Below are positions 2 to 32,000 of a DNA stretch of 32,000 nt, piece after piece (position 1 is the first letter of the stretch; each line of letters opens with the position of its first letter). Below the pieces are notes generated by a model. That model did not search any database and was not told the origin of the DNA. It saw only the letters and a program-made list of their open reading frames with translations. This stretch comes from Trichlorobacter lovleyi SZ (GTDB lineage Bacteria > Desulfobacterota > Desulfuromonadia > Geobacterales > Pseudopelobacteraceae). The DNA lies in NCBI RefSeq assembly GCF_000020385.1, contig NC_010814.1, forward strand, positions 2,250,001-2,282,000, read 5' to 3'. The position numbers and the translations under genes are program-made.

Positions 2-136
2 GCCAAACCAGCTGCCGGAACCTACTATCTGCGGGTGATTGCCAGAAATGCGGCAGGGCTGACGACCACCGGGTTTGATCGCCATGATACTGAAGGAACA
101 ACCTATTGGGGGGTTTTACAGTTCACGGTATCCTGA
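2..136 (+). CDS. 3' end of an unidentified CDS entering from upstream of the window (...GTYYLRVIARNAAGLTTTGFDRHDTEGTTYWGVLQFTVS*)
   Basis: Frame 2 is open from base 2 to TGA at 134-136 (44 codons). It is too short and 5'-truncated to appear in the ORF track. It converges on holA with a 17-nt gap. No domain recognised. Confidence 0.3.
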   Translation, partial: AKPAAGTYYLRVIARNAAGLTTTGFDRHDTEGTTYWGVLQFTVS

Positions 137-153
137 GAATATGAAAGTATGGC

Positions 154-1164
154 TCAACGAGCCATACCGGCCACTGTCCCGGCACAGGCGTCATAGACCA
201 GTCCTTGCAGAACCGTTGCTGCTGAGGAGCCGGTCTTGACCCCGACATCCCCCCGGTACAACCGCTCAAACAGGGCCTCCAGCTCAGTCACCGGATATTT
301 TTTAGCCTGGGTGACCTGTTCACCCAGAAAAAACTGGTGGATCTTGAGTTGCTTGCCGATATCAGCAGGGGGCATCTTCTGATCCAGCAGTTCCCGGATC
401 CGCCAGATCCTGCGAAAATGACTGGCCAGAGCCCCCAGGATCATGACCGCCTCTTCACCATTTTGCAACATGGCTTGCAAGGTAGCCAATGCCTTTGCCA
501 GATTCTTTTCCCCCATGAATCTGGCCAGCTCAAAGGCGGTAAATGACTTGCTTTGGCTGACGATTGCCTTGACATCCTCAACCCCGATCACCGGACGACT
601 ACCAACATACAGGGCAGCCTTCTCAATCTGTGAAACCAGCTCCTGTAGATTGTTACCCACCATGAAGCCCAGCATCTCGGCTCCTGCCCCATCTATCTTC
701 TTGCCATGCACCGCAGCCTCAGCATTGATAAACGGCCCCAGTTTATTGTCATACAGCTTCTTAAATTCCAGCGTACCGGGCTGTTTCTTGAGCTCGGAAA
801 AAAATTTGCGGCGCAGATCAGGTTTGGCAGCCAGGAACAGCAGGCAGGTTTCCGGACAGGGATTGGCCAGATAGGGCAGCAGCCCCTCCTGGGTTGCTGC
901 CGGCAGCTTGTCAGCCTGCCTGACCACCACCACCCGGCGTTCTGCAAACATCGGTAATGTCTGGGAGGTATCAAGGATCTCGGTCCCTTTGCAATCCGCA
1001 CCGTAATAGATGTTCAGGTTAAAATCTTTCATGGCAGGATCAACCGCCTTCTCCATGACACGACGACCAGCCCGCTCAACCAGAAACGGCTCTTCACCAT
1101 AAAAGAAATAGACCGCTGAAAAGCTGCCGGTCTGAAGTTGTTTTTCAAGTTCCTGTTCAGTCAT
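154..1164 (-). CDS. holA: DNA polymerase III delta subunit
   Basis: The 336-aa ORF has the size and sequence pattern of HolA (N-terminal ...AVYFFYGEEPFL..., helical C-terminal domains). It sits downstream of leuS-lptE, as in many Proteobacteria. ATG 1164 shares one base with the stop of the upstream gene (TGATG). Confidence 0.85.
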   Translation of the reverse strand: MTEQELEKQLQTGSFSAVYFFYGEEPFLVERAGRRVMEKAVDPAMKDFNLNIYYGADCKGTEILDTSQTLPMFAERRVVVVRQADKLPAATQEGLLPYLANPCPETCLLFLAAKPDLRRKFFSELKKQPGTLEFKKLYDNKLGPFINAEAAVHGKKIDGAGAEMLGFMVGNNLQELVSQIEKAALYVGSRPVIGVEDVKAIVSQSKSFTAFELARFMGEKNLAKALATLQAMLQNGEEAVMILGALASHFRRIWRIRELLDQKMPPADIGKQLKIHQFFLGEQVTQAKKYPVTELEALFERLYRGDVGVKTGSSAATVLQGLVYDACAGTVAGMAR

Positions 1165-23564: not shown

Positions 23565-24437
23565 ATGAAGATAGCTGACAAACTTGCAACCGGTTGCCGT
23601 TTTGTCTCGGTAGAATACTTTCCCCCCAAGGAACGCCAGGACTGGCCTGCCTTTTTCAAGGTGGTGGAGCGTCTGGCCAGCCTGAACCCGCTGTTTGCCT
23701 CGGTCACCTATGGCGCAGGCGGCAGCAATCAGGATGCAACCCTTGAGATTGTGACCCAGATGCAACAGCAGTTGGGGCTGGAGACCATGGCCCACCTGAC
23801 CTGCGTGGGCGCCCAGGCAGGCCGTTTGAACCGTTTTCTTGATGACCTGTCAAAAGTTGGCATCCAGAACATCCTGGCCCTGCGGGGTGACCCTCCCCTG
23901 GAAACACCGGTAGAGCAACTGACAGAGTCACCTTTTCATTTTGCCTCTGATCTGGTCTCCTTTGTGAGCCAGTCCCATCCGCAGATGGGAGTTGCAGTAG
24001 CAGCCTACCCGGAAACCCACCCTGAGGCGATCTCACCAGAATCAGATCTGGGCTACCTGAAGCTGAAGATGGATCTGGGGGGGGACTTCGCCGTAACCCA
24101 GCTCTTTTTCGACAACCAACTCTACTTTGATTTTGTAAAACGTGCCCGTGAGCGGGGCATCACCAAGCTGATCATCCCCGGTATCCTGCCGGTACTGAAT
24201 CTGAAAATGATCGAGCGGATCAAGCAGCTTTCCGGAGCCTTTATCCCGCCTGACTTTATGGCTGCTTTGGAAGCAGCTGACCAACGCGGCGGCGCAGCCG
24301 AAGTACGCAAGGTAGGGGTAGCTCATGCCCGCAAACAGGCTGAAGAGCTGCTGGCTAGCGGTGTGCAGGGGGTACACCTCTACACCTTTAACAAGGCCGA
24401 AGCCATACTTGAACTGACTGAAGGACTCTTGCCGTAA
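23565..24437 (+). CDS. metF: 5,10-methylenetetrahydrofolate reductase
   Basis: The MetF pattern starts at MKIADKLATGCRFVSVEYFPPK...TYGAGGS.... The 371-aa track ORF (from 23322) adds an implausible leader of about 80 aa. ATG 23565 is preceded by AAGGA. Confidence 0.9.
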   Translation: MKIADKLATGCRFVSVEYFPPKERQDWPAFFKVVERLASLNPLFASVTYGAGGSNQDATLEIVTQMQQQLGLETMAHLTCVGAQAGRLNRFLDDLSKVGIQNILALRGDPPLETPVEQLTESPFHFASDLVSFVSQSHPQMGVAVAAYPETHPEAISPESDLGYLKLKMDLGGDFAVTQLFFDNQLYFDFVKRARERGITKLIIPGILPVLNLKMIERIKQLSGAFIPPDFMAALEAADQRGGAAEVRKVGVAHARKQAEELLASGVQGVHLYTFNKAEAILELTEGLLP

Positions 24438-24510
24438 TTTTTTATCCTTGCAGGCTGTCATTGTTTGATGCCATTATGATCTTACCGCATCTTACCTTTG
24501 GAGGGGCACA

Positions 24511-24774
24511 ATGGAGACAACTCTGTCCAGCAAAGGACAAATCGTTATTCCTCTGCAAATAAGAAATCTGCATGGCTGGCGGCCGGGGGCCTCCTTTACC
24601 ATTATTGACAACGAAGACTCCTTGATTCTTCAACCGGTCCAGACAAAAACAACAACCAAACTGGAAGATGTAATTGGATGCGCCGGATATCAGGGAAAAA
24701 AGAAAAGCCAGGCAGAGATGGACGCAGGAATACTTGAGGAAGCCAAAAGACGGGTGGCTGAATGGTCTCGGTAG
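24511..24774 (+). CDS. vapB: AbrB/SpoVT-family antitoxin (VapB-like)
   Basis: The 87-aa product has an N-terminal swapped-hairpin pattern (TLSSKGQIVIPLQIRNLHGWRPGASFTI). A GGAGGGG Shine-Dalgarno lies 4 nt upstream. It overlaps the downstream PIN gene by 13 nt. Confidence 0.75.
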   Translation: METTLSSKGQIVIPLQIRNLHGWRPGASFTIIDNEDSLILQPVQTKTTTKLEDVIGCAGYQGKKKSQAEMDAGILEEAKRRVAEWSR

Positions 24775-25154
24775 ATACCAATCTTGTTGTCAGGCTACTG
24801 GTCAATGACGACCCGGCGCAAACGAATAAGGTTGCAGCACTGTTCACGGCTGAAAAAATATTCATCGCCAAAACAGTTGTTCTTGAAACGGAATGGATTT
24901 TGCGAGGGGTCTATAACCTTGACCGTAACACAACAAATAGCGCACTACGAAAACTATTATCCCTGGAACAGGTCATTGTGGAGGATGAAAGCATACTTTT
25001 TGATGCGCTGGACAACCATCTGCAAGGGGTGGATTTTGCAGATGCCCTCCACCTGTCTTCAAGTCATCGGGCAGCAACATTTGCCACCTTTGATGCAAAA
25101 TTCAAATCAACTGCTAAAAAGCTGTCTTTGAAACCAACCGTCATTACTCCCTAG
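24762..25154 (+). CDS. vapC: PIN-domain ribonuclease toxin (VapC-like)
   Basis: The 130-aa product carries the PIN acidic residues in context: VDTN (D5), LETEW, DFADALH and TFDAKF. It is arranged as a classic overlapping two-gene TA pair. Confidence 0.8.
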   Translation: MVSVDTNLVVRLLVNDDPAQTNKVAALFTAEKIFIAKTVVLETEWILRGVYNLDRNTTNSALRKLLSLEQVIVEDESILFDALDNHLQGVDFADALHLSSSHRAATFATFDAKFKSTAKKLSLKPTVITP

Positions 25155-25198
25155 ATTTACAGCACTAAGGTGCTTCCAGACCGATGTAAGGAATTACC

Positions 25199-28100: not shown

Positions 28101-28708
28101 TCTATCAGGCCAACGGAGATGGCAATGACCTGATCCTGTTTAATCAGGATGGCAGCGAGGCAACCCGCTTTACCCTACCCCGCCAGAAGAGCGGTGAACA
28201 GCTCTGTGTGGCAGACTTTGTCCGTCCGCTGTCAGGTACCGAGAAGGACACCATGGCCCTGTTTGCGGTCACCTGCGGTCAGGGTGTACGGGAACTGTCT
28301 GAGCAGTGGAAGGCTGAAGGGGATTACCTCAACTCCCACCTGCTGCAGGCTCTGGCCCTTGAAATGGCCGAGGCCACCGCAGAATACCTGCACAAACGGA
28401 TCCGCACCTCCTGGGGGATTGTAGATGATCAGACCCTGACCATGAAGCAGCTCTTTAATGCCGAGTACCAGGGAATCCGGGTTTCCTTTGGTTATCCGGC
28501 CTGCCCCAATCTGGATGACCAGAAAAAGCTGTTCAGCCTGCTGAAGCCGGAGCAGATCGGTATTAACCTGACTGAAGGGGACATGATGGACCCCGAGGCC
28601 TCGGTCTCGGCGCTGGTGTTTCATCACCCGGAGGGGAAATATTTTGACCTGATTAGCGCCAATCTTCCGCTTGGCGAAGTTTTGCTTCCGGCAGCTTCTT
28701 TGTTTTGA
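25199..28708 (+). CDS. metH: Cobalamin-dependent methionine synthase MetH; the last 20 codons are IS-derived
   Basis: The Hcy-binding domain has the zinc Cys motifs GLNCATGP and GGCCGTSP. The pterin-binding domain is present. The B12-binding motif is GDVHDIGKN. The AdoMet activation domain is present. From 28648 the reading frame runs into the IS left end (...KYFD|LISANLPLGEVLLPAASLF*). Confidence 0.95.
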   Translation: MTNNPVLQALSQCILILDGAMGTQLQARNLTAADFGGEAYEGCNEMLVLTRPDVIEDVHKAYLEAGADIVETCSFGSTDIVLAEYGLADKVFELNKAAALVARKACDAYSTPDKPRFVAGSMGPTTRTISVTGGVTFEQLVTAFRDQTIGLLAGGVDLLLLETAQDTLNLKAGAEGIRLAFEQTGQRVPLMVSGTIEPTGTMLAGQNVEALYASLTHLEENLGLISIGLNCATGPEFMTDHLRALSELATCHISVYPNAGLPDENGNYAESPDSLAQKLSRFVDEGWLNIIGGCCGTSPAHIAAIANMAAGRQPRKPVTIRRRLVSGIEPLFIEEDNRPILVGERTNVIGSRKFKNMIVAGQFEEAAEIARAQVKTGAQVIDICVANPDRDELADMEQMLVYLPKKVRAPIMIDSTDAKVTELALQRLQGKCVINSINLEDGEERFAKVAPLLRHYGGAVVVGCIDEDPANGMAVTRQRKLEVAQRSYDLLVNKYGLRPEDLIFDPLVFPVGSGDDNYIGSAVETIEGVRLITETFPQCSTILGISNVSFGLPAAGREVLNAVFLYHCVKAGLGYAIVNTEKLERYASIPEAERRLAEDLIFWRGADPVAAFAAAFRDKKPVSHAPAAELPLDERLPLYIIEGSKDGLTADLDAALTRGDKPLEIINGPLMAGMAEVGRLFNDNQLIVAEVLQSAEAMKAAVSHLEPHLSKDETSSKGKMLLATVKGDVHDIGKNLVEIILSNNGFEVINLGIKVGPEELIAAAKKENPDFIGLSGLLVKSALQMIVTAADLKAAGIDAPLLVGGAALSRAFADTRITPEYNGPVLYAKDAMAGLELANQLVDPALRQQLMLDLARQQEASAKIAAAKAAGQSTVATGSTHSAISSNAPILVAPDLEQHILRDIPVGQIIPYLNRQMLYTKHLGLTGSVDKLLAGQDEKATKLHLTVEAMLERVLQEGLIKPQAIYRFYQANGDGNDLILFNQDGSEATRFTLPRQKSGEQLCVADFVRPLSGTEKDTMALFAVTCGQGVRELSEQWKAEGDYLNSHLLQALALEMAEATAEYLHKRIRTSWGIVDDQTLTMKQLFNAEYQGIRVSFGYPACPNLDDQKKLFSLLKPEQIGINLTEGDMMDPEASVSALVFHHPEGKYFDLISANLPLGEVLLPAASLF
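28640..28647. repeat. Left copy of the 8-bp target-site duplication TATTTTGA
   Basis: An identical octamer is found at 29709-29716, immediately outside the other IS end. Confidence 0.9.
28648..28670. repeat. IS left terminal inverted repeat CCTGATTAGCGCCAATCTTCCGC
   Basis: It is the exact reverse complement of 29686-29708. Confidence 0.92.
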
Positions 28709-29612
28709 CCGCTGCCGCCACGAGTCGCTTTAGCATGCCAGCCAGATCAAAGCGGCGGTTGAAACGATATTGAAACTCGCCAAGGTAGCGATAGGCATAT
28801 TTCTCAAAGTCAAAGGCATGGTAGGTGCCAGTTATAGAGTTTTTCAGATTGCCGAGAACCGTATTGATCCAGCTGAAGCATTTCATGCTGGTACTTTTTC
28901 TGTCTTTACCAACGACCTCACGCTGATGAACACATCCGGCAGCCTCAACTGCCTGGAAACACCAGAGGCCATCGGATACGATTAAAGCTGATGGTGCAAG
29001 GAAACTTTTGGCCCATATTTCGACTTCTTCCTTGCAGAAGCTCTTTACCGTACTGAATACCGCATAGAGTGGATGGCCTTGGTTGTTGGTCTGTACAGCA
29101 GCAATAAACGGCACCTTGTTTTCAGAGCCGCGGCCAACCTTGCCACCGGGTAGTTCACCGCCGAGGTAGGCATCATCTACCTCAACGCGGTCTGATAATA
29201 CGGTTGTTTGCTCACGTTCAAACATGGCCTGCATTATTTTGTGCTTGATGCGCCAGGCAGCACGATAGCTGATACCAGCCAGACGTCGGAGTTCCAGGAT
29301 CGATACATTATTCTTGCTCTGTGTCAGAAAGAACATGGCCTGGAACCAGATCGTCAGCGGTAACTTTGTTGAGTGAAAGAGCGTCCCCTCAGTAAGGGTA
29401 GTCTGGGTTCTACAGGAACTGCACTGGAACACCTTGACTGAAACACCACGCCGATAGGTGAAGTGGTGAGTATTACCACATTTGGAACAGGTAAAACCGC
29501 CGGGCCAACGGGCTGACTCTACAACCGTCTCACATTGTTCCTGAGAGCCGTACAACTCAAGGAACTTGTTCAGACTAAGTCCTGGCTGAAACTGTATCAG
29601 ATTCATTTTCAT
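28653..29612 (-). CDS. IS1595-family transposase
   Basis: The product begins MKMNLIQFQPGLSLNKFLELYGSQEQC. It has a zinc ribbon (CSKCGN...CSSCRT) and acidic motifs VEVDDAYLGG and LIVSDGLW. ATG 29612 is preceded by GGAGG with an 8-nt spacer; the track start at 29651 is less likely. The stop lies inside the left IR. Confidence 0.88.
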   Translation of the reverse strand: MKMNLIQFQPGLSLNKFLELYGSQEQCETVVESARWPGGFTCSKCGNTHHFTYRRGVSVKVFQCSSCRTQTTLTEGTLFHSTKLPLTIWFQAMFFLTQSKNNVSILELRRLAGISYRAAWRIKHKIMQAMFEREQTTVLSDRVEVDDAYLGGELPGGKVGRGSENKVPFIAAVQTNNQGHPLYAVFSTVKSFCKEEVEIWAKSFLAPSALIVSDGLWCFQAVEAAGCVHQREVVGKDRKSTSMKCFSWINTVLGNLKNSITGTYHAFDFEKYAYRYLGEFQYRFNRRFDLAGMLKRLVAAAVKTKKLPEAKLRQAEDWR

Positions 29613-29685
29613 GGCAACCACCTCCGCATAAGTTGCCATGAATCTTAACATGCTGTAGTGACCAAATATGTCGTTTTGCCAATCT

Positions 29686-29708
29686 GCGGAAGATTGGCGC
29701 TAATCAGG
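29686..29708. repeat. IS right terminal inverted repeat GCGGAAGATTGGCGCTAATCAGG
   Basis: It is the exact reverse complement of 28648-28670. It overlaps a local hairpin: GCCAATCT (29678-29685), loop GCGGA, AGATTGGC (29691-29698). Confidence 0.92.
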
Positions 29709-29729
29709 TATTTTGATGTGGGGCGGTAA
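29709..29729 (+). other. Right copy of the target duplication plus the displaced native 3' end of metH (tat ttt gat gtg ggg cgg TAA = YFDVGR*)
   Basis: Deleting 28648-29716 in silico joins ...AAA TAT TTT GA to T GTG GGG CGG TAA in frame. This restores a MetH that ends ...HHPEGKYFDVGR*. Confidence 0.85.
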
Positions 29730-29752
29730 CAGATGATTACCAACTAACTAAC

Positions 29753-32000
29753 ATGCCGCAAGAACAAGTAAAACATACCGCCACAACCTCCGTTGGGTTT
29801 GACTACCAAACTCTACAAGGCGTCTACTTGTTGTCAGAGTGGCTGTCTTCTCCAGCCCGATACAAACGTGTGATGTTTGAAGCTGCGGAAGAGGCGCCAC
29901 AAAGTCTTGATGACATAGTAGCAGAGCGGGCTGATGGGCGTTTTGATTATTGGCAGGTAAAATACACGCCTAACTCCGAGAATAATGCCTTAACTTGGGA
30001 CTGGCTTCTTAATGTAACCGGCAAAACGGATCGATCTCGATGCAATTTAAAAAAATGGCTTGATGCGCTGCAAAAAATCGATACTGATAAACTCGGAACC
30101 ATTCAGCTTATCACCAACAAAGTTCCTGATCGCGATATTGAGGCATGCCTAGGCGGTGGAAGGCATCTGGATTTATCCAAAGCGCCCGAAAGCATCCAAA
30201 GTCATGTAGAGGCAACACTTGGTAGCCGGGAAAATGCCGAGTGGTTGTTCTCCCTGTTGCAAGTTGTGCACAGTGACAAGGGTTACTTGAATCTTGAAAA
30301 TGTGATTTATGATTCACTGCAGCGTTTTACAGACCGTGACGGCATCGACCGCTTATTGATTCAGGCCAGCAAATGGACATCCTTCAAGGATATGCCCCCC
30401 CCTGATGGATGGATCACTCTTGACGTTCTTAACAGCATCATTTCTACCAAACGTCCTCGTCCAATCCCTGAAGACTTTGCAATTCCTGAAGGCTACGAAG
30501 TTCCCGACGAAGAGTTTCACTCAGGTTTTGTTGCTGAAATCGAATCTGGAATAAAATCAATTCTTGTTCTGACCGGTCCGCCTGGCCGCGGCAAAAGCAC
30601 ATACCTCAGCTATCTCTGCGAAACCTTGGAACAACACGGCATCCCCAATGTTCGTCACCACTACTTTCTTTCTCTGGTAGATAGAACCGATGACAGGCTT
30701 TCTCCTTACGTCGTCAAAGATTCGCTCCTGCGCCAAATTGAGCTTTTTCATGCACAAGCTCATGTGGGAATCAAAAGCAATGTAGATTTATTTGAAGCTT
30801 TGAGTAGATGCGCGGCTTATTACAAAGCACATAAGAAGCCATTTGTTGTTGTCATAGATGGGTTAGATCATGTCTGGCGTGATAATGCTGGAGATAAACG
30901 CCCACTGGACGATCTCTTCAAGCAGCTCATACCAGCTCCCGATAACCTCGTACTCATTATTGGCACCCAACCAGTTACAGATTCTCGGCTTCCCGACAGA
31001 TTGCTGGTCCACGCTCCCCGACACGATTGGAAATTGCTCCCAGTCATGTCCGAAGTCTCGGTAATGCGTTACCTACAGGCTCAACTATCTTGTGGGCGGT
31101 TGTTCATGCAACACGGCACTCATGCGGCTGAAGAACTGGCAAAAAGTGCTCGCCTGATGCGCCAATTAACCGGAGGGCATCCACTGCATGTCATCTACGC
31201 GACCGGGCACCTTGTGAATAGTGGTGAAGGGCTTTCAACATGGAGTGTTGAGCATATTCCGGGAGATTTGAGCAGTGATGCCGAGACGTACTATCGATCC
31301 TTGTGGTTTGGGCTTTCCTATGTCCAAAAAGATATTCTGATACTGTTGGCAGAGTTCAGGTTTTATTGGCCAAGAAGGGCTTTTATAAGCTCCATGCTTC
31401 TGCCGGAAAATTGCAGCGAAGCTAACGTACATACCATTGAACACCTTCTTCATAGCTCCGTCATTGGGCTTCAACCGTTTCATGAAAGTCTTATCGTATT
31501 CATAAAGAACACCGCTGAATACACGGCCCGCGTCCAGATACTGCTTCCAGGCGTATTGCAATGGCTGGATTTTGAAGCTCCAGATCGTTTGAAAAATACA
31601 TGGTTGTGGATTGTTCAAGCGCGAACCGGAATCCCCGACCCTCTGATTGCCGGGCTCACTCGCGATTGGGTTCTCGACCGCTTGGCGGCTGGCTATCCTA
31701 TTGATGTGATTGCAGATATACTCACGGAAGCTGAAGAATCAGCATTCGACTTGCGGCGTTACGCTGATGCATATCGCTTGCGCCATCTGAAAACAAGAAT
31801 CCTGAATGGGCCGGAATTTCAGATCCCTGATGCAACCCGTTTAAAAATCTGCTCGTGGAAATGCGCGGATGATGGCTCTGTGCTTGATGAGGCTTTTGCG
31901 TCGCGTGAGGGCCTTTCGATTGTTGATGAAGCTGCACTTGGTCAAGCTTTGCAGTGGAAACAGCTTGATCAGGAAGCAAACGTTTGTGGAAAGGATGCAC
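29753..32000 (+). CDS. Large 3'-truncated ORF: Cap4/DUF4297-like PD-(D/E)xK nuclease N-terminal domain plus STAND-type P-loop NTPase plus helical C-terminal region (candidate Avs-like defence protein)
   Basis: I translated it by hand codon by codon. ATG 29753 follows an in-frame TGA at 29714-29716, and there is no stop through base 32000 (749 codons). Motifs: GFDYQ (aa 15-19), FEAAEE (42-47), DDIV (53-56), QVK (68-70), Walker A GPPGRGKST (275-283; 30575-30601), Walker B VVVIDGLDH (365-373), GGHPLHV (474-480). The ORF is missing from the track because it has no stop in the window. Confidence 0.8.
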   Translation, partial: MPQEQVKHTATTSVGFDYQTLQGVYLLSEWLSSPARYKRVMFEAAEEAPQSLDDIVAERADGRFDYWQVKYTPNSENNALTWDWLLNVTGKTDRSRCNLKKWLDALQKIDTDKLGTIQLITNKVPDRDIEACLGGGRHLDLSKAPESIQSHVEATLGSRENAEWLFSLLQVVHSDKGYLNLENVIYDSLQRFTDRDGIDRLLIQASKWTSFKDMPPPDGWITLDVLNSIISTKRPRPIPEDFAIPEGYEVPDEEFHSGFVAEIESGIKSILVLTGPPGRGKSTYLSYLCETLEQHGIPNVRHHYFLSLVDRTDDRLSPYVVKDSLLRQIELFHAQAHVGIKSNVDLFEALSRCAAYYKAHKKPFVVVIDGLDHVWRDNAGDKRPLDDLFKQLIPAPDNLVLIIGTQPVTDSRLPDRLLVHAPRHDWKLLPVMSEVSVMRYLQAQLSCGRLFMQHGTHAAEELAKSARLMRQLTGGHPLHVIYATGHLVNSGEGLSTWSVEHIPGDLSSDAETYYRSLWFGLSYVQKDILILLAEFRFYWPRRAFISSMLLPENCSEANVHTIEHLLHSSVIGLQPFHESLIVFIKNTAEYTARVQILLPGVLQWLDFEAPDRLKNTWLWIVQARTGIPDPLIAGLTRDWVLDRLAAGYPIDVIADILTEAEESAFDLRRYADAYRLRHLKTRILNGPEFQIPDATRLKICSWKCADDGSVLDEAFASREGLSIVDEAALGQALQWKQLDQEANVCGKDA

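Follow-up and report, generated by a model that had tools for sequence, protein, structure and literature searches.

What kind of protein is encoded at the right-hand end of the window examined here, a 32,000-nt stretch of the Trichlorobacter lovleyi SZ genome (NC_010814.1, positions 2,250,001 to 2,282,000), where an open reading frame (ORF) begins at the ATG at position 29753 of the + strand and is still open at the last base? By analogy with better characterized systems, we regard it as probable that this window gene is the 5' part, approximately 40%, of a horizontally acquired member of the bNACHT27 family, i.e., an Avs-like nuclease-NACHT receptor that would act as an abortive-infection sensor. 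Residue numbers below count from that ATG, and all features lie on the + strand unless stated otherwise. Translation of 29753..32000 gave 749 codons with zero stops, against 34 and 57 stops in the other two forward frames, and the probability of 749 open codons arising by chance, calculated from local base composition, is about 2e-17. This confirmed the initial annotation, which had reported frame 2 to be open from this ATG to base 32000. The gene was missing from the ORF list because the lister omitted ORFs running off the source. Its start codon is conserved in two relatives (L001 and L002), and the motifs quoted in the annotation all sit at the positions claimed for them: GFDYQ at aa 15-19, E43, LDDIV at aa 52-56, QVK at aa 68-70, the Walker A sequence GPPGRGKST at aa 275-283, the Walker B sequence VVVIDGLDH at aa 365-373, LIIGTQP at aa 401-407 and GGHPLHV at aa 474-480.

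The family assignment comes from the comparison with bNACHT27 (WP_033145356.1), to which the window protein is 50% identical (E = 3e-138, no large gaps) over the 399 residues available, window 4-402 against bNACHT27 3-399. bNACHT27 is a 1,473-aa protein of Enterobacter asburiae RHBSTW-00831, recorded with '2 genes in operon' (Kibby et al. Table S2, 10.1101/2022.07.19.500537) and classified as 'Tox-REase-8+NACHT' in NACHT clade 2 (Kibby et al. Table S1). The window gene would accordingly be placed in clade 2 too, by homology to bNACHT27 rather than by a tree, and on the same homology its architecture is not new, the family having already been catalogued as bNACHT27. Another relative, ECC9552481.1 from Salmonella enterica subsp. 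salamae, shares 47% identity with the window NTPase over its whole 248 aa. This protein may be 'SeAvs1', a name for which a text search matched only 'SeAvs18'. In Lee et al. 2026 it is seed #25 of 656 NTPase seeds, and the identity to it therefore indicates that the bNACHT27 family was included in that survey. An exhaustive profile search returned 574 representatives of the family at E <= 1e-30, and in a collection of 5.8 billion proteins the closest ones were at most 60% identical to the window ORF.

The N-terminal domain is a predicted Cap4-type DNA endonuclease, in agreement with the Cap4/DUF4297 call made in the initial annotation. This PD-(D/E)xK nuclease domain (DUF4297 / Tox-REase-8) covers aa 11-190 (29783..30322) according to Pfam PF14130 and PADLOC. 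Cap4_nuclease (PF14130) was the sole Pfam family matched when aa 1-240 were scanned alone, where its 27.8 bits exceed the cutoff of 26.2; in a scan of all 749 aa it reached 24.0 bits at aa 11-188, just under that cutoff. The same family was matched by 17 of the 21 N-termini of relatives (best E = 1.5e-11), and the PADLOC models LmuA (33 bits) and SAVED_PDDEXK (30 bits) also matched at the N-terminus. The Tox-REase-8 signature, defined as GxxxQ, DD and QxK (Zhang et al. 2012, PMC3482391), is complete in the window protein, with G15-x3-Q19 (G15-F-D-Y-Q19, 29795..29809), the predicted metal-binding catalytic aspartates D53 and D54 (29909..29914), and Q68-V-K70 carrying the predicted catalytic lysine (29954..29962). 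In the alignments of 49 sequences, with relatives down to 31% identity, and of 21 family N-termini, D54, Q68 and K70 are invariant, and Y18, Q19, E43 and D53 are kept in at least 90% of sequences. A nuclease-dead D53A/K70A mutant had been proposed earlier; the invariant aspartate is D54, D53 being kept in at least 90%, so that D54A would be the preferable substitution.

In the AlphaFold2 model the nuclease starts with a helix (8-32), followed by strands at 37-42, 55-59 and 64-70, which place E43, D54 and K70 as expected; a restriction-endonuclease fold may be read from this and from the Foldseek match of the whole 749-aa model to the Cap4-bearing SeAvs3. The linker of about 200 aa that had been assumed between nuclease and NTPase did not hold up, since the region is mostly structured: the Cap4 match extends to aa 190, the helices of the model continue to approximately aa 230, and the unstructured stretch appears, in the model, to be limited to about aa 231-252.

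The NTPase that follows is a NACHT-type member of the signal transduction ATPases with numerous domains (STAND), with its core at aa 262-417 (30536..31003) by Pfam NACHT, AAA_16 and NPHP3_N. NACHT (PF05729) scored 36.5 bits at aa 270-417, against a cutoff of 26.7, and NPHP3_N 35.9 against 24.8, the generic AAA_16 lying slightly above NACHT at 42.5 bits. Both nucleotide-binding motifs are intact, and so the earlier STAND call stands: in Walker A (30575..30601) P277, G278, K281, S282 and T283 are invariant among the 49 sequences, and in Walker B, with D369 and D372 (30845..30871), the whole of D369-R376 (DGLDHVWR) is invariant. The suggestion that GGHPLHV (31172..31192) is the GxP-type motif of the helical domain was likewise borne out, with P477 and L478 invariant, G475 kept in at least 90% of sequences, and a helix of the model (477-490) starting there. 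Further downstream we recognized a winged-helix F-H-x-S motif, PFHESL (31475..31492), in which F576, H577 and S579 are invariant and which is preceded by a beta-hairpin (566-575) in the model. H577 may, by analogy, be the ADP-contacting histidine of the autoinhibited state. The H-x-S spacing is that of NLRC4 H443/S445, which has been exploited for bNACHT25 and bNACHT16 (Kibby et al.), and the equivalence was drawn by motif, not by structural superposition.

Beyond the winged helix the window shows approximately 160 aa, the first helices of a long C-terminal region (aa 590-749, 31520..32000), which are all-helical in the model at a predicted local distance difference test score (pLDDT) of about 85-97. 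This C-terminal region is kept in relatives, in which it runs about 700-1,200 aa beyond the end point of the window, and the effector-NTPase-sensor layout is present in full-length relatives of 1,455-1,955 aa.

The structure prediction and Foldseek comparison that had been proposed as a check gave a confident model, whose best match is the Cap4-STAND-TPR (tetratricopeptide repeat) protein SeAvs3. The AlphaFold2 model of the 749 aa, built from the alignment of 49 relatives, had a pLDDT of 88.6 and a predicted template modelling score (pTM) of 0.84. Searched against the PDB, its top match was SeAvs3 (8DGC; E = 1.5e-15, 875 aligned columns, 13% identity), followed by the NTPase modules of the origin recognition complex (ORC/Cdc6) and of plant nucleotide-binding leucine-rich repeat receptors (NLR). 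The TM-scores of the SeAvs3 match are low (0.25 / 0.10), and together with the 13% identity they make this match support for a common architecture, not for close kinship. Sequence profiles of the whole family and of the N-terminal domain, run against the PDB, found no significant Cap4, Avs or NLR match; the 8DGC chain was not found there at E <= 0.01 with the whole-family profile or at E <= 10 with the N-terminal one. Among non-significant matches (E = 3) was 9n00_A (also 9n01 and 9yix), a 1,523-aa 'AAA family ATPase' with YQ...DDVV...QxK in register with the family N-terminus. This may be another Cap4-STAND protein such as SeAvs7, a guess prompted by the three entries, as in Lee et al.

How far the family extends beyond the 749 codons can be judged from its full-length members. 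The closest relative, L001 from a Geobacteraceae metagenome-assembled genome, is 72% identical to the window protein over all 749 aa and is a fused protein of 1,943 aa. Among the best 150 of the 574 representatives, 76 are of split size (1,393-1,507 aa) and 43 of fused size (1,862-2,006 aa), 4 lie between both size classes, and 27 are shorter and probably fragments. L001 shares 36% identity with an Escherichia coli-cluster member (1,924 aa) over the displayed alignment, which reaches about residue 1,500 of L001, and 39% with L003 over 1,455 aa. The last ~480 aa of L001 are 31% identical (E = 2e-63) to the 473-aa product of a separate L003 gene, with which the end of the 1,455-aa gene overlaps. 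Chitinibacter tainanensis (L009) has the same two-gene split, with a 4-nt overlap, within a Tn7-like element. The fused and split loci lie at L001:10001-15832, L003:10001-15777 and L009:4625-10446, the split genes overlapping by 4-13 nt, and the C-terminal region together with the terminal module of about 470 aa is present in L001, L003, L009 and P0129. Judged by these alignments, the bNACHT27 family is conserved end to end. Long-term purifying selection is clear, with nonsynonymous differences per site (pN) of 0.17 and a saturated synonymous value (pS) of 0.75 between L001 and the window gene.

The initial annotation had spoken of a single-protein sensor. A fused form does exist, as in L001, but some two-thirds of the relatives of full size consist of two overlapping genes, which makes the single-protein description uncertain. 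Beyond its 749 codons the window copy may be fused, like its closest relative L001, or split; by homology the full gene would measure about 5.8 kb if fused; if split, it would comprise a gene of about 4.4 kb and a second, overlapping one of 1.4 kb. From the size of the family proteins, one of about 1,900-2,000 aa or a pair of about 1,450 and 480 aa, it follows that the window holds only about 40% of the gene.

Pfam matched no family when the last 1,194 aa of L001 and the last 715 aa of L003 were scanned. A stand-alone terminal module (P0172, corresponding to approximately L001 1465-1943) was modelled as helical at 9-274 and beta-rich at 279-471 (pLDDT 81, pTM 0.83), and Foldseek found nothing in the PDB at E < 0.1 for it, the best match having E = 0.14. 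Among the family entries in Enterobacteria and Pseudomonas (clusters P0007 and P0010), many are only fragments, 260-1,100 aa in length, that bear the label 'partial' or 'AAA family ATPase'. In E. coli, P0035 (L004/L005:8968-12556) is an N-terminally truncated remnant next to part of a DDE_3 transposase, with PDC-M01A/B and HipAB on its flanks. Disruption or mis-assembly seems to be frequent in the family.

How did the gene come to lie here? The initial annotation had placed it beside an insertion sequence (IS) and near a toxin-antitoxin pair, and had suggested horizontal acquisition. Both neighbours (28653-29651 on the - strand, and 24511-25154) are present as claimed, and acquisition is now directly evident from the absence of the IS, the gene and the toxin-antitoxin cassette from T. 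lovleyi CP058409.1. That genome reads metF-metH-htpG, the MazE/PIN cassette being missing along with the IS and the NACHT gene; its nucleotide synteny with the window (91-93% identity) ends at 28647, and, the IS aside, homology ends after the metH stop. The IS belongs to the IS1595 family and spans 1,063 bp (28647..29709, - strand), with a transposase at 28653-29651 (Pfam DDE_Tnp_IS1595 and Zn_ribbon_IS1595), perfect terminal inverted repeats of 24 bp (28647-28670 and 29686-29709) and ATTTTG on both flanks. Between its end and the ATG is a 43-nt spacer (29710..29752) that contains the original metH stop, TAA at 29727-29729, 23 nt before the ATG of the window gene, and forms the left edge of a strain-specific island.

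The MetH of the window has 1,169 aa (ACD95849.1 / WP_012470188.1 of T. lovleyi SZ), against 1,153 aa in other T. lovleyi strains, and with the IS removed in silico it becomes a protein of 1,153 aa ending in ...YFDVGR*. The IS was inserted in the last metH codons (28640-28708), the last 19 residues of MetH (LISANLPLGEVLLPAASLF) being read from the IS end, so that the deposited protein is a chimera. Taken together, the synteny and the absence from CP058409.1 place the gene in a strain-specific island starting right after metH, with which its low G+C at third codon positions (GC3) is consistent. These sequence comparisons indicate that the island is inserted directly after metH, and that the IS insertion is the later event. 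The window ORF has 47.8% G+C and 45.0% GC3, its 60-nt lines spanning 35 to 62%, compared with 54-58% G+C and 66-68% GC3 for the housekeeping genes metH, glnS, era and der; the contrast in composition noted earlier is therefore real, but smaller than the 38-45% claimed for this region would have made it. As to the toxin-antitoxin pair, the MazE-like (24511-24774) and PIN (24762-25154) genes form a 760-bp strain-specific cassette (24434-25193, G+C 45-48%) between metF and metH, which in CP058409.1 overlap by 4 nt with nothing between.

Relatives of the window gene are found among defence genes. The L001 relative adjoins a Type IV methyl-directed restriction enzyme (mREase_IV, 629 bits), the L003 relative MzaC/MzaD and Vsr, and the E. 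coli relative the candidate system PDC-M01A/B, so that all three relatives examined have defence genes as immediate neighbours. In Chitinibacter tainanensis the split pair lies by rpoD in a Tn7-like element (L009:10823-19446) with HTH_TnsB and two TniQ/TnsD proteins, and appears to be defence-type cargo. The gene is accessory and horizontally acquired, and its family is found in a defence-island context.

The computational evidence thus comprises the domains, the intact residues, the family, the island insertion, the base composition and the defence context of relatives; the mechanism we infer from what has been described for nuclease-bearing Avs and bNACHT proteins (PMC13581612, PMC12169576, 10.64898/2026.08.25.746987). 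In the uninfected cell the receptor would be an ADP-bound, autoinhibited monomer, with H577 in contact with the nucleotide and the nuclease kept sequestered, as we infer by analogy with SeAvs3, SeAvs7 and bNACHT25. Upon infection, the C-terminal helical region would bind a cue, which is probably either a phage protein of conserved type or a host factor that has been perturbed, and the terminal module of about 470 aa, a separate gene in many relatives, may contribute to this binding. Nucleotide exchange at the Walker A and B motifs (K281 and D369/D372) would then open the NACHT module and lead to oligomerisation, probably into a tetramer, which would gather the Cap4 domains into active dimers (D54, Q68, K70). 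The dimers would cut phage and host double-stranded DNA indiscriminately, and the outcome would be abortive infection.

Several points weigh against our interpretation. No bNACHT27-family member has a demonstrated phenotype; bNACHT27 itself was cloned by Kibby et al., whose Table S2 leaves its 'Phage Defense' cell empty, and a literature text search found it mentioned in no paper text. To these are added the low TM-scores of the structural match. Moreover, about 60% of the gene lies beyond the window. Genome and metagenome contigs scanned for exact 60-mers and 37-mers gave no match and no 3' sequence, megablast against E. coli genomes and plasmids gave no match to extend the window, and an exact-protein look-up with MetH returned just 6-kb contigs ending at the IS, again with no 3' sequence. 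The transposase, with the start codon chosen, had no exact protein on record, and a scan of species-representative genomes found neither the exact DNA nor a T. lovleyi locus. A related-locus scan of metagenomes recovered a single 1.2-kb fragment (L012). Finally, the collection of 5.8 billion proteins holds no protein at least 90% identical to that of the window, though the MetH of SZ is present, and the signals for expression, considered next, leave expression uncertain.

The alternative that survives best, though we think it unlikely, is that the gene, although genuine by descent, is no longer functional or expressed in SZ, being disrupted downstream or cut off from its promoter by the IS. 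The right end of the IS at 29709 is 43 nt from the ATG, no Shine-Dalgarno sequence was found before that ATG (L001 and L002 have AGGA at the usual distance), and a promoter and terminator scan of the IS/gene junction found nothing above shuffled expectation and no promoter-like site on the + strand, which together make expression uncertain. Such consensus scans are weak evidence, Geobacter promoters being outside their coverage, and the gene could be transcribed by read-through, either from metH or from the IS. The missing near-identical protein would fit a gene without coding annotation in SZ, but it may also be an artefact of how the collection was prepared. In the same direction point the many fragments and remnants among enterobacterial entries, including the truncated P0035 beside its transposase fragment, and the metagenomic fragment L012 (OFJB01032880.1; L012:3-1166). 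This only near-identical metagenomic copy corresponds to codons 39-426, is 98% identical to the window, and carries an in-frame stop at codon 269, where S269 (TCA), intact in the window copy, has become TGA. Its seven substitutions all fall in codons 232-269, a stretch of 110 nt, and the rest of the 1,164 nt is identical, a clustering that resembles a local assembly error; L012 may represent such an error or a decaying copy. A ratio of nonsynonymous to synonymous rates (dN/dS) against L012 is uninformative, as it would be drawn from only 6 substitutions and the stop. Set against loss of function, all 749 codons of the window copy are open and every invariant residue of the family is kept.

A second alternative, which we consider improbable, is that the window protein is related to Avs1 and senses terminase. 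Avs1b was the only STAND model matched among the PADLOC and NCBIfam models, and the alignment, in register, joins query 253-683 (the NTPase and the next ~200 aa) to model 207-626; its models, of 1,924 and 1,931 positions, are sized like fused family members (1,924-1,955 aa). SeAvs3, which matches the model best, senses terminase, and Lee et al. describe Avs1-3 as terminase sensors. Yet the scores are only 16-43 bits against a cutoff of 1,500 (16.4 bits for NCBIfam NF041810 with that cutoff, and 29.6-43.4 for PADLOC PDLC02159, in the NTPase region only, even in full-length relatives), nothing aligned past model position 626, and Avs1b ('AVAST type 1 protease') has an N-terminal protease where the window protein has a Cap4-type nuclease; Avs1b also belongs to a multi-gene system. 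We therefore rejected membership in Avs1b for its scores, the lack of a protease and the lack of C-terminal similarity; by its profile scores, the window protein falls outside all the Avs1-5 models that were tried. Of the Avs-type effector-STAND-sensor description in the initial annotation, the domains stand, with SeAvs3 as the best structural match, while the architecture proved to be a known one.

A last alternative, in our view very improbable, makes the protein a STAND of conflict or regulation that does not act against phage, be it an anti-plasmid or anti-mobile-element weapon, an island addiction module or a toxin-type effector, as the name Tox-REase-8 suggests. In its favour, no phage phenotype is on record for bNACHT27, and Tox-REase-8 was originally reported among polymorphic toxins and effectors of endosymbionts (Zhang et al. 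2012, PMC3482391). The family also rides on mobile elements (Tn7-like in L009, IS-flanked in the window), and Lee et al. find STAND clades without a defence role scattered among defence clades. Against it, secretion signal, RHS/ankyrin context and immunity gene are all absent, and the nuclease precedes a NACHT switch, an order shared with Avs and bNACHT effectors. Moreover, defence genes directly adjoin all three relatives examined, and Lee et al. took the family as one of the seeds when surveying STANDs associated with defence.

Returning to the nuclease-NACHT receptor, the window gene itself is an ordinary accessory gene of defence type, and more can be gained from what was learned about its whole family. 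With T. lovleyi SZ, a model dechlorinator, this widespread family of giant nuclease-NACHT receptors gains a member from Desulfuromonadota, and the present analysis pins down the arrival of the gene, with an island abutting the metH stop and a later IS that rewrote the last metH codons. The most interesting aspects are the separable, fold-orphan terminal module and the trigger of the family. It is conceivable, and we put this forward only tentatively, that the bNACHT27 family is a distinct, unnamed Avs-type sensor in two parts, in which the terminal module of about 470 aa, translationally coupled where it is a gene of its own, would serve the NACHT protein as its ligand-binding or regulatory subunit. 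The trigger is possibly absent from the coliphage panels used so far, and this would explain the lack of a bNACHT27 phenotype. With its end-to-end conservation, its fused and split forms and a terminal module without a fold relative, the family is a reasonable candidate for trigger discovery among the Avs-like families without a ligand.

Among known systems, bNACHT27 is the nearest: it shares with the window protein the nuclease motifs and the GPPGRGKSTYLS, RHHYFLS, DGLDHVWR and KRPLDD blocks, and its domains occupy equal positions (nuclease 11-129, NACHT from 269). It differs in being the split form, from Enterobacteriaceae, whereas the window gene is from Desulfuromonadota and its closest relative is fused. 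SeAvs3, which senses the large terminase of phages, resembles the family in having a Cap4-type nuclease, a STAND NTPase and a long helical region in that order, with about 2,000 aa in total; in contrast, the window NTPase is of NACHT type, and the C-terminal end of the family is an alpha+beta module without a PDB match. Membership in Avs3 was rejected, as no PADLOC Avs3 model matches the window protein at E <= 1 and the similarity is structural only, at 13% identity. SeAvs7 (Cap4 nuclease-STAND-TPR) likewise carries a Cap4 nuclease effector on a STAND; according to Lee et al. 2026, it senses the major capsid protein with EF-Tu, and its Cap4 domain is autoinhibited and activated by tetramerisation. 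It differs in size, and similarity is detectable only in the nuclease motifs of 9n00_A, if that chain is indeed SeAvs7.

bNACHT25 and bNACHT32 of E. coli also have a nuclease effector N-terminal to the NACHT module. They are clade 6 proteins, Mrr-like restriction endonuclease (REase)-NACHT-NCH1, with DnaJ-dependent sensing, in which a nuclease D-to-A mutant abolishes defence and H-x-S winged-helix mutations hyperactivate. Unlike the window protein they use an Mrr-like REase, belong to another clade and have 752 aa against about 1,930 aa; bNACHT25 was rejected as the closest relative, BLASTP aligning the P-loop only (E = 0.089). Cap4 of the cyclic-oligonucleotide-based antiphage signalling system (CBASS) and LmuA of Lamassu have, by profile, the same nuclease domain family. 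Control of Cap4 lies with a SAVED domain, which binds cyclic oligonucleotides, and control of LmuA with its SMC-like partners LmuB/C, whereas in the window protein the regulator of the nuclease would be a fused NACHT NTPase.

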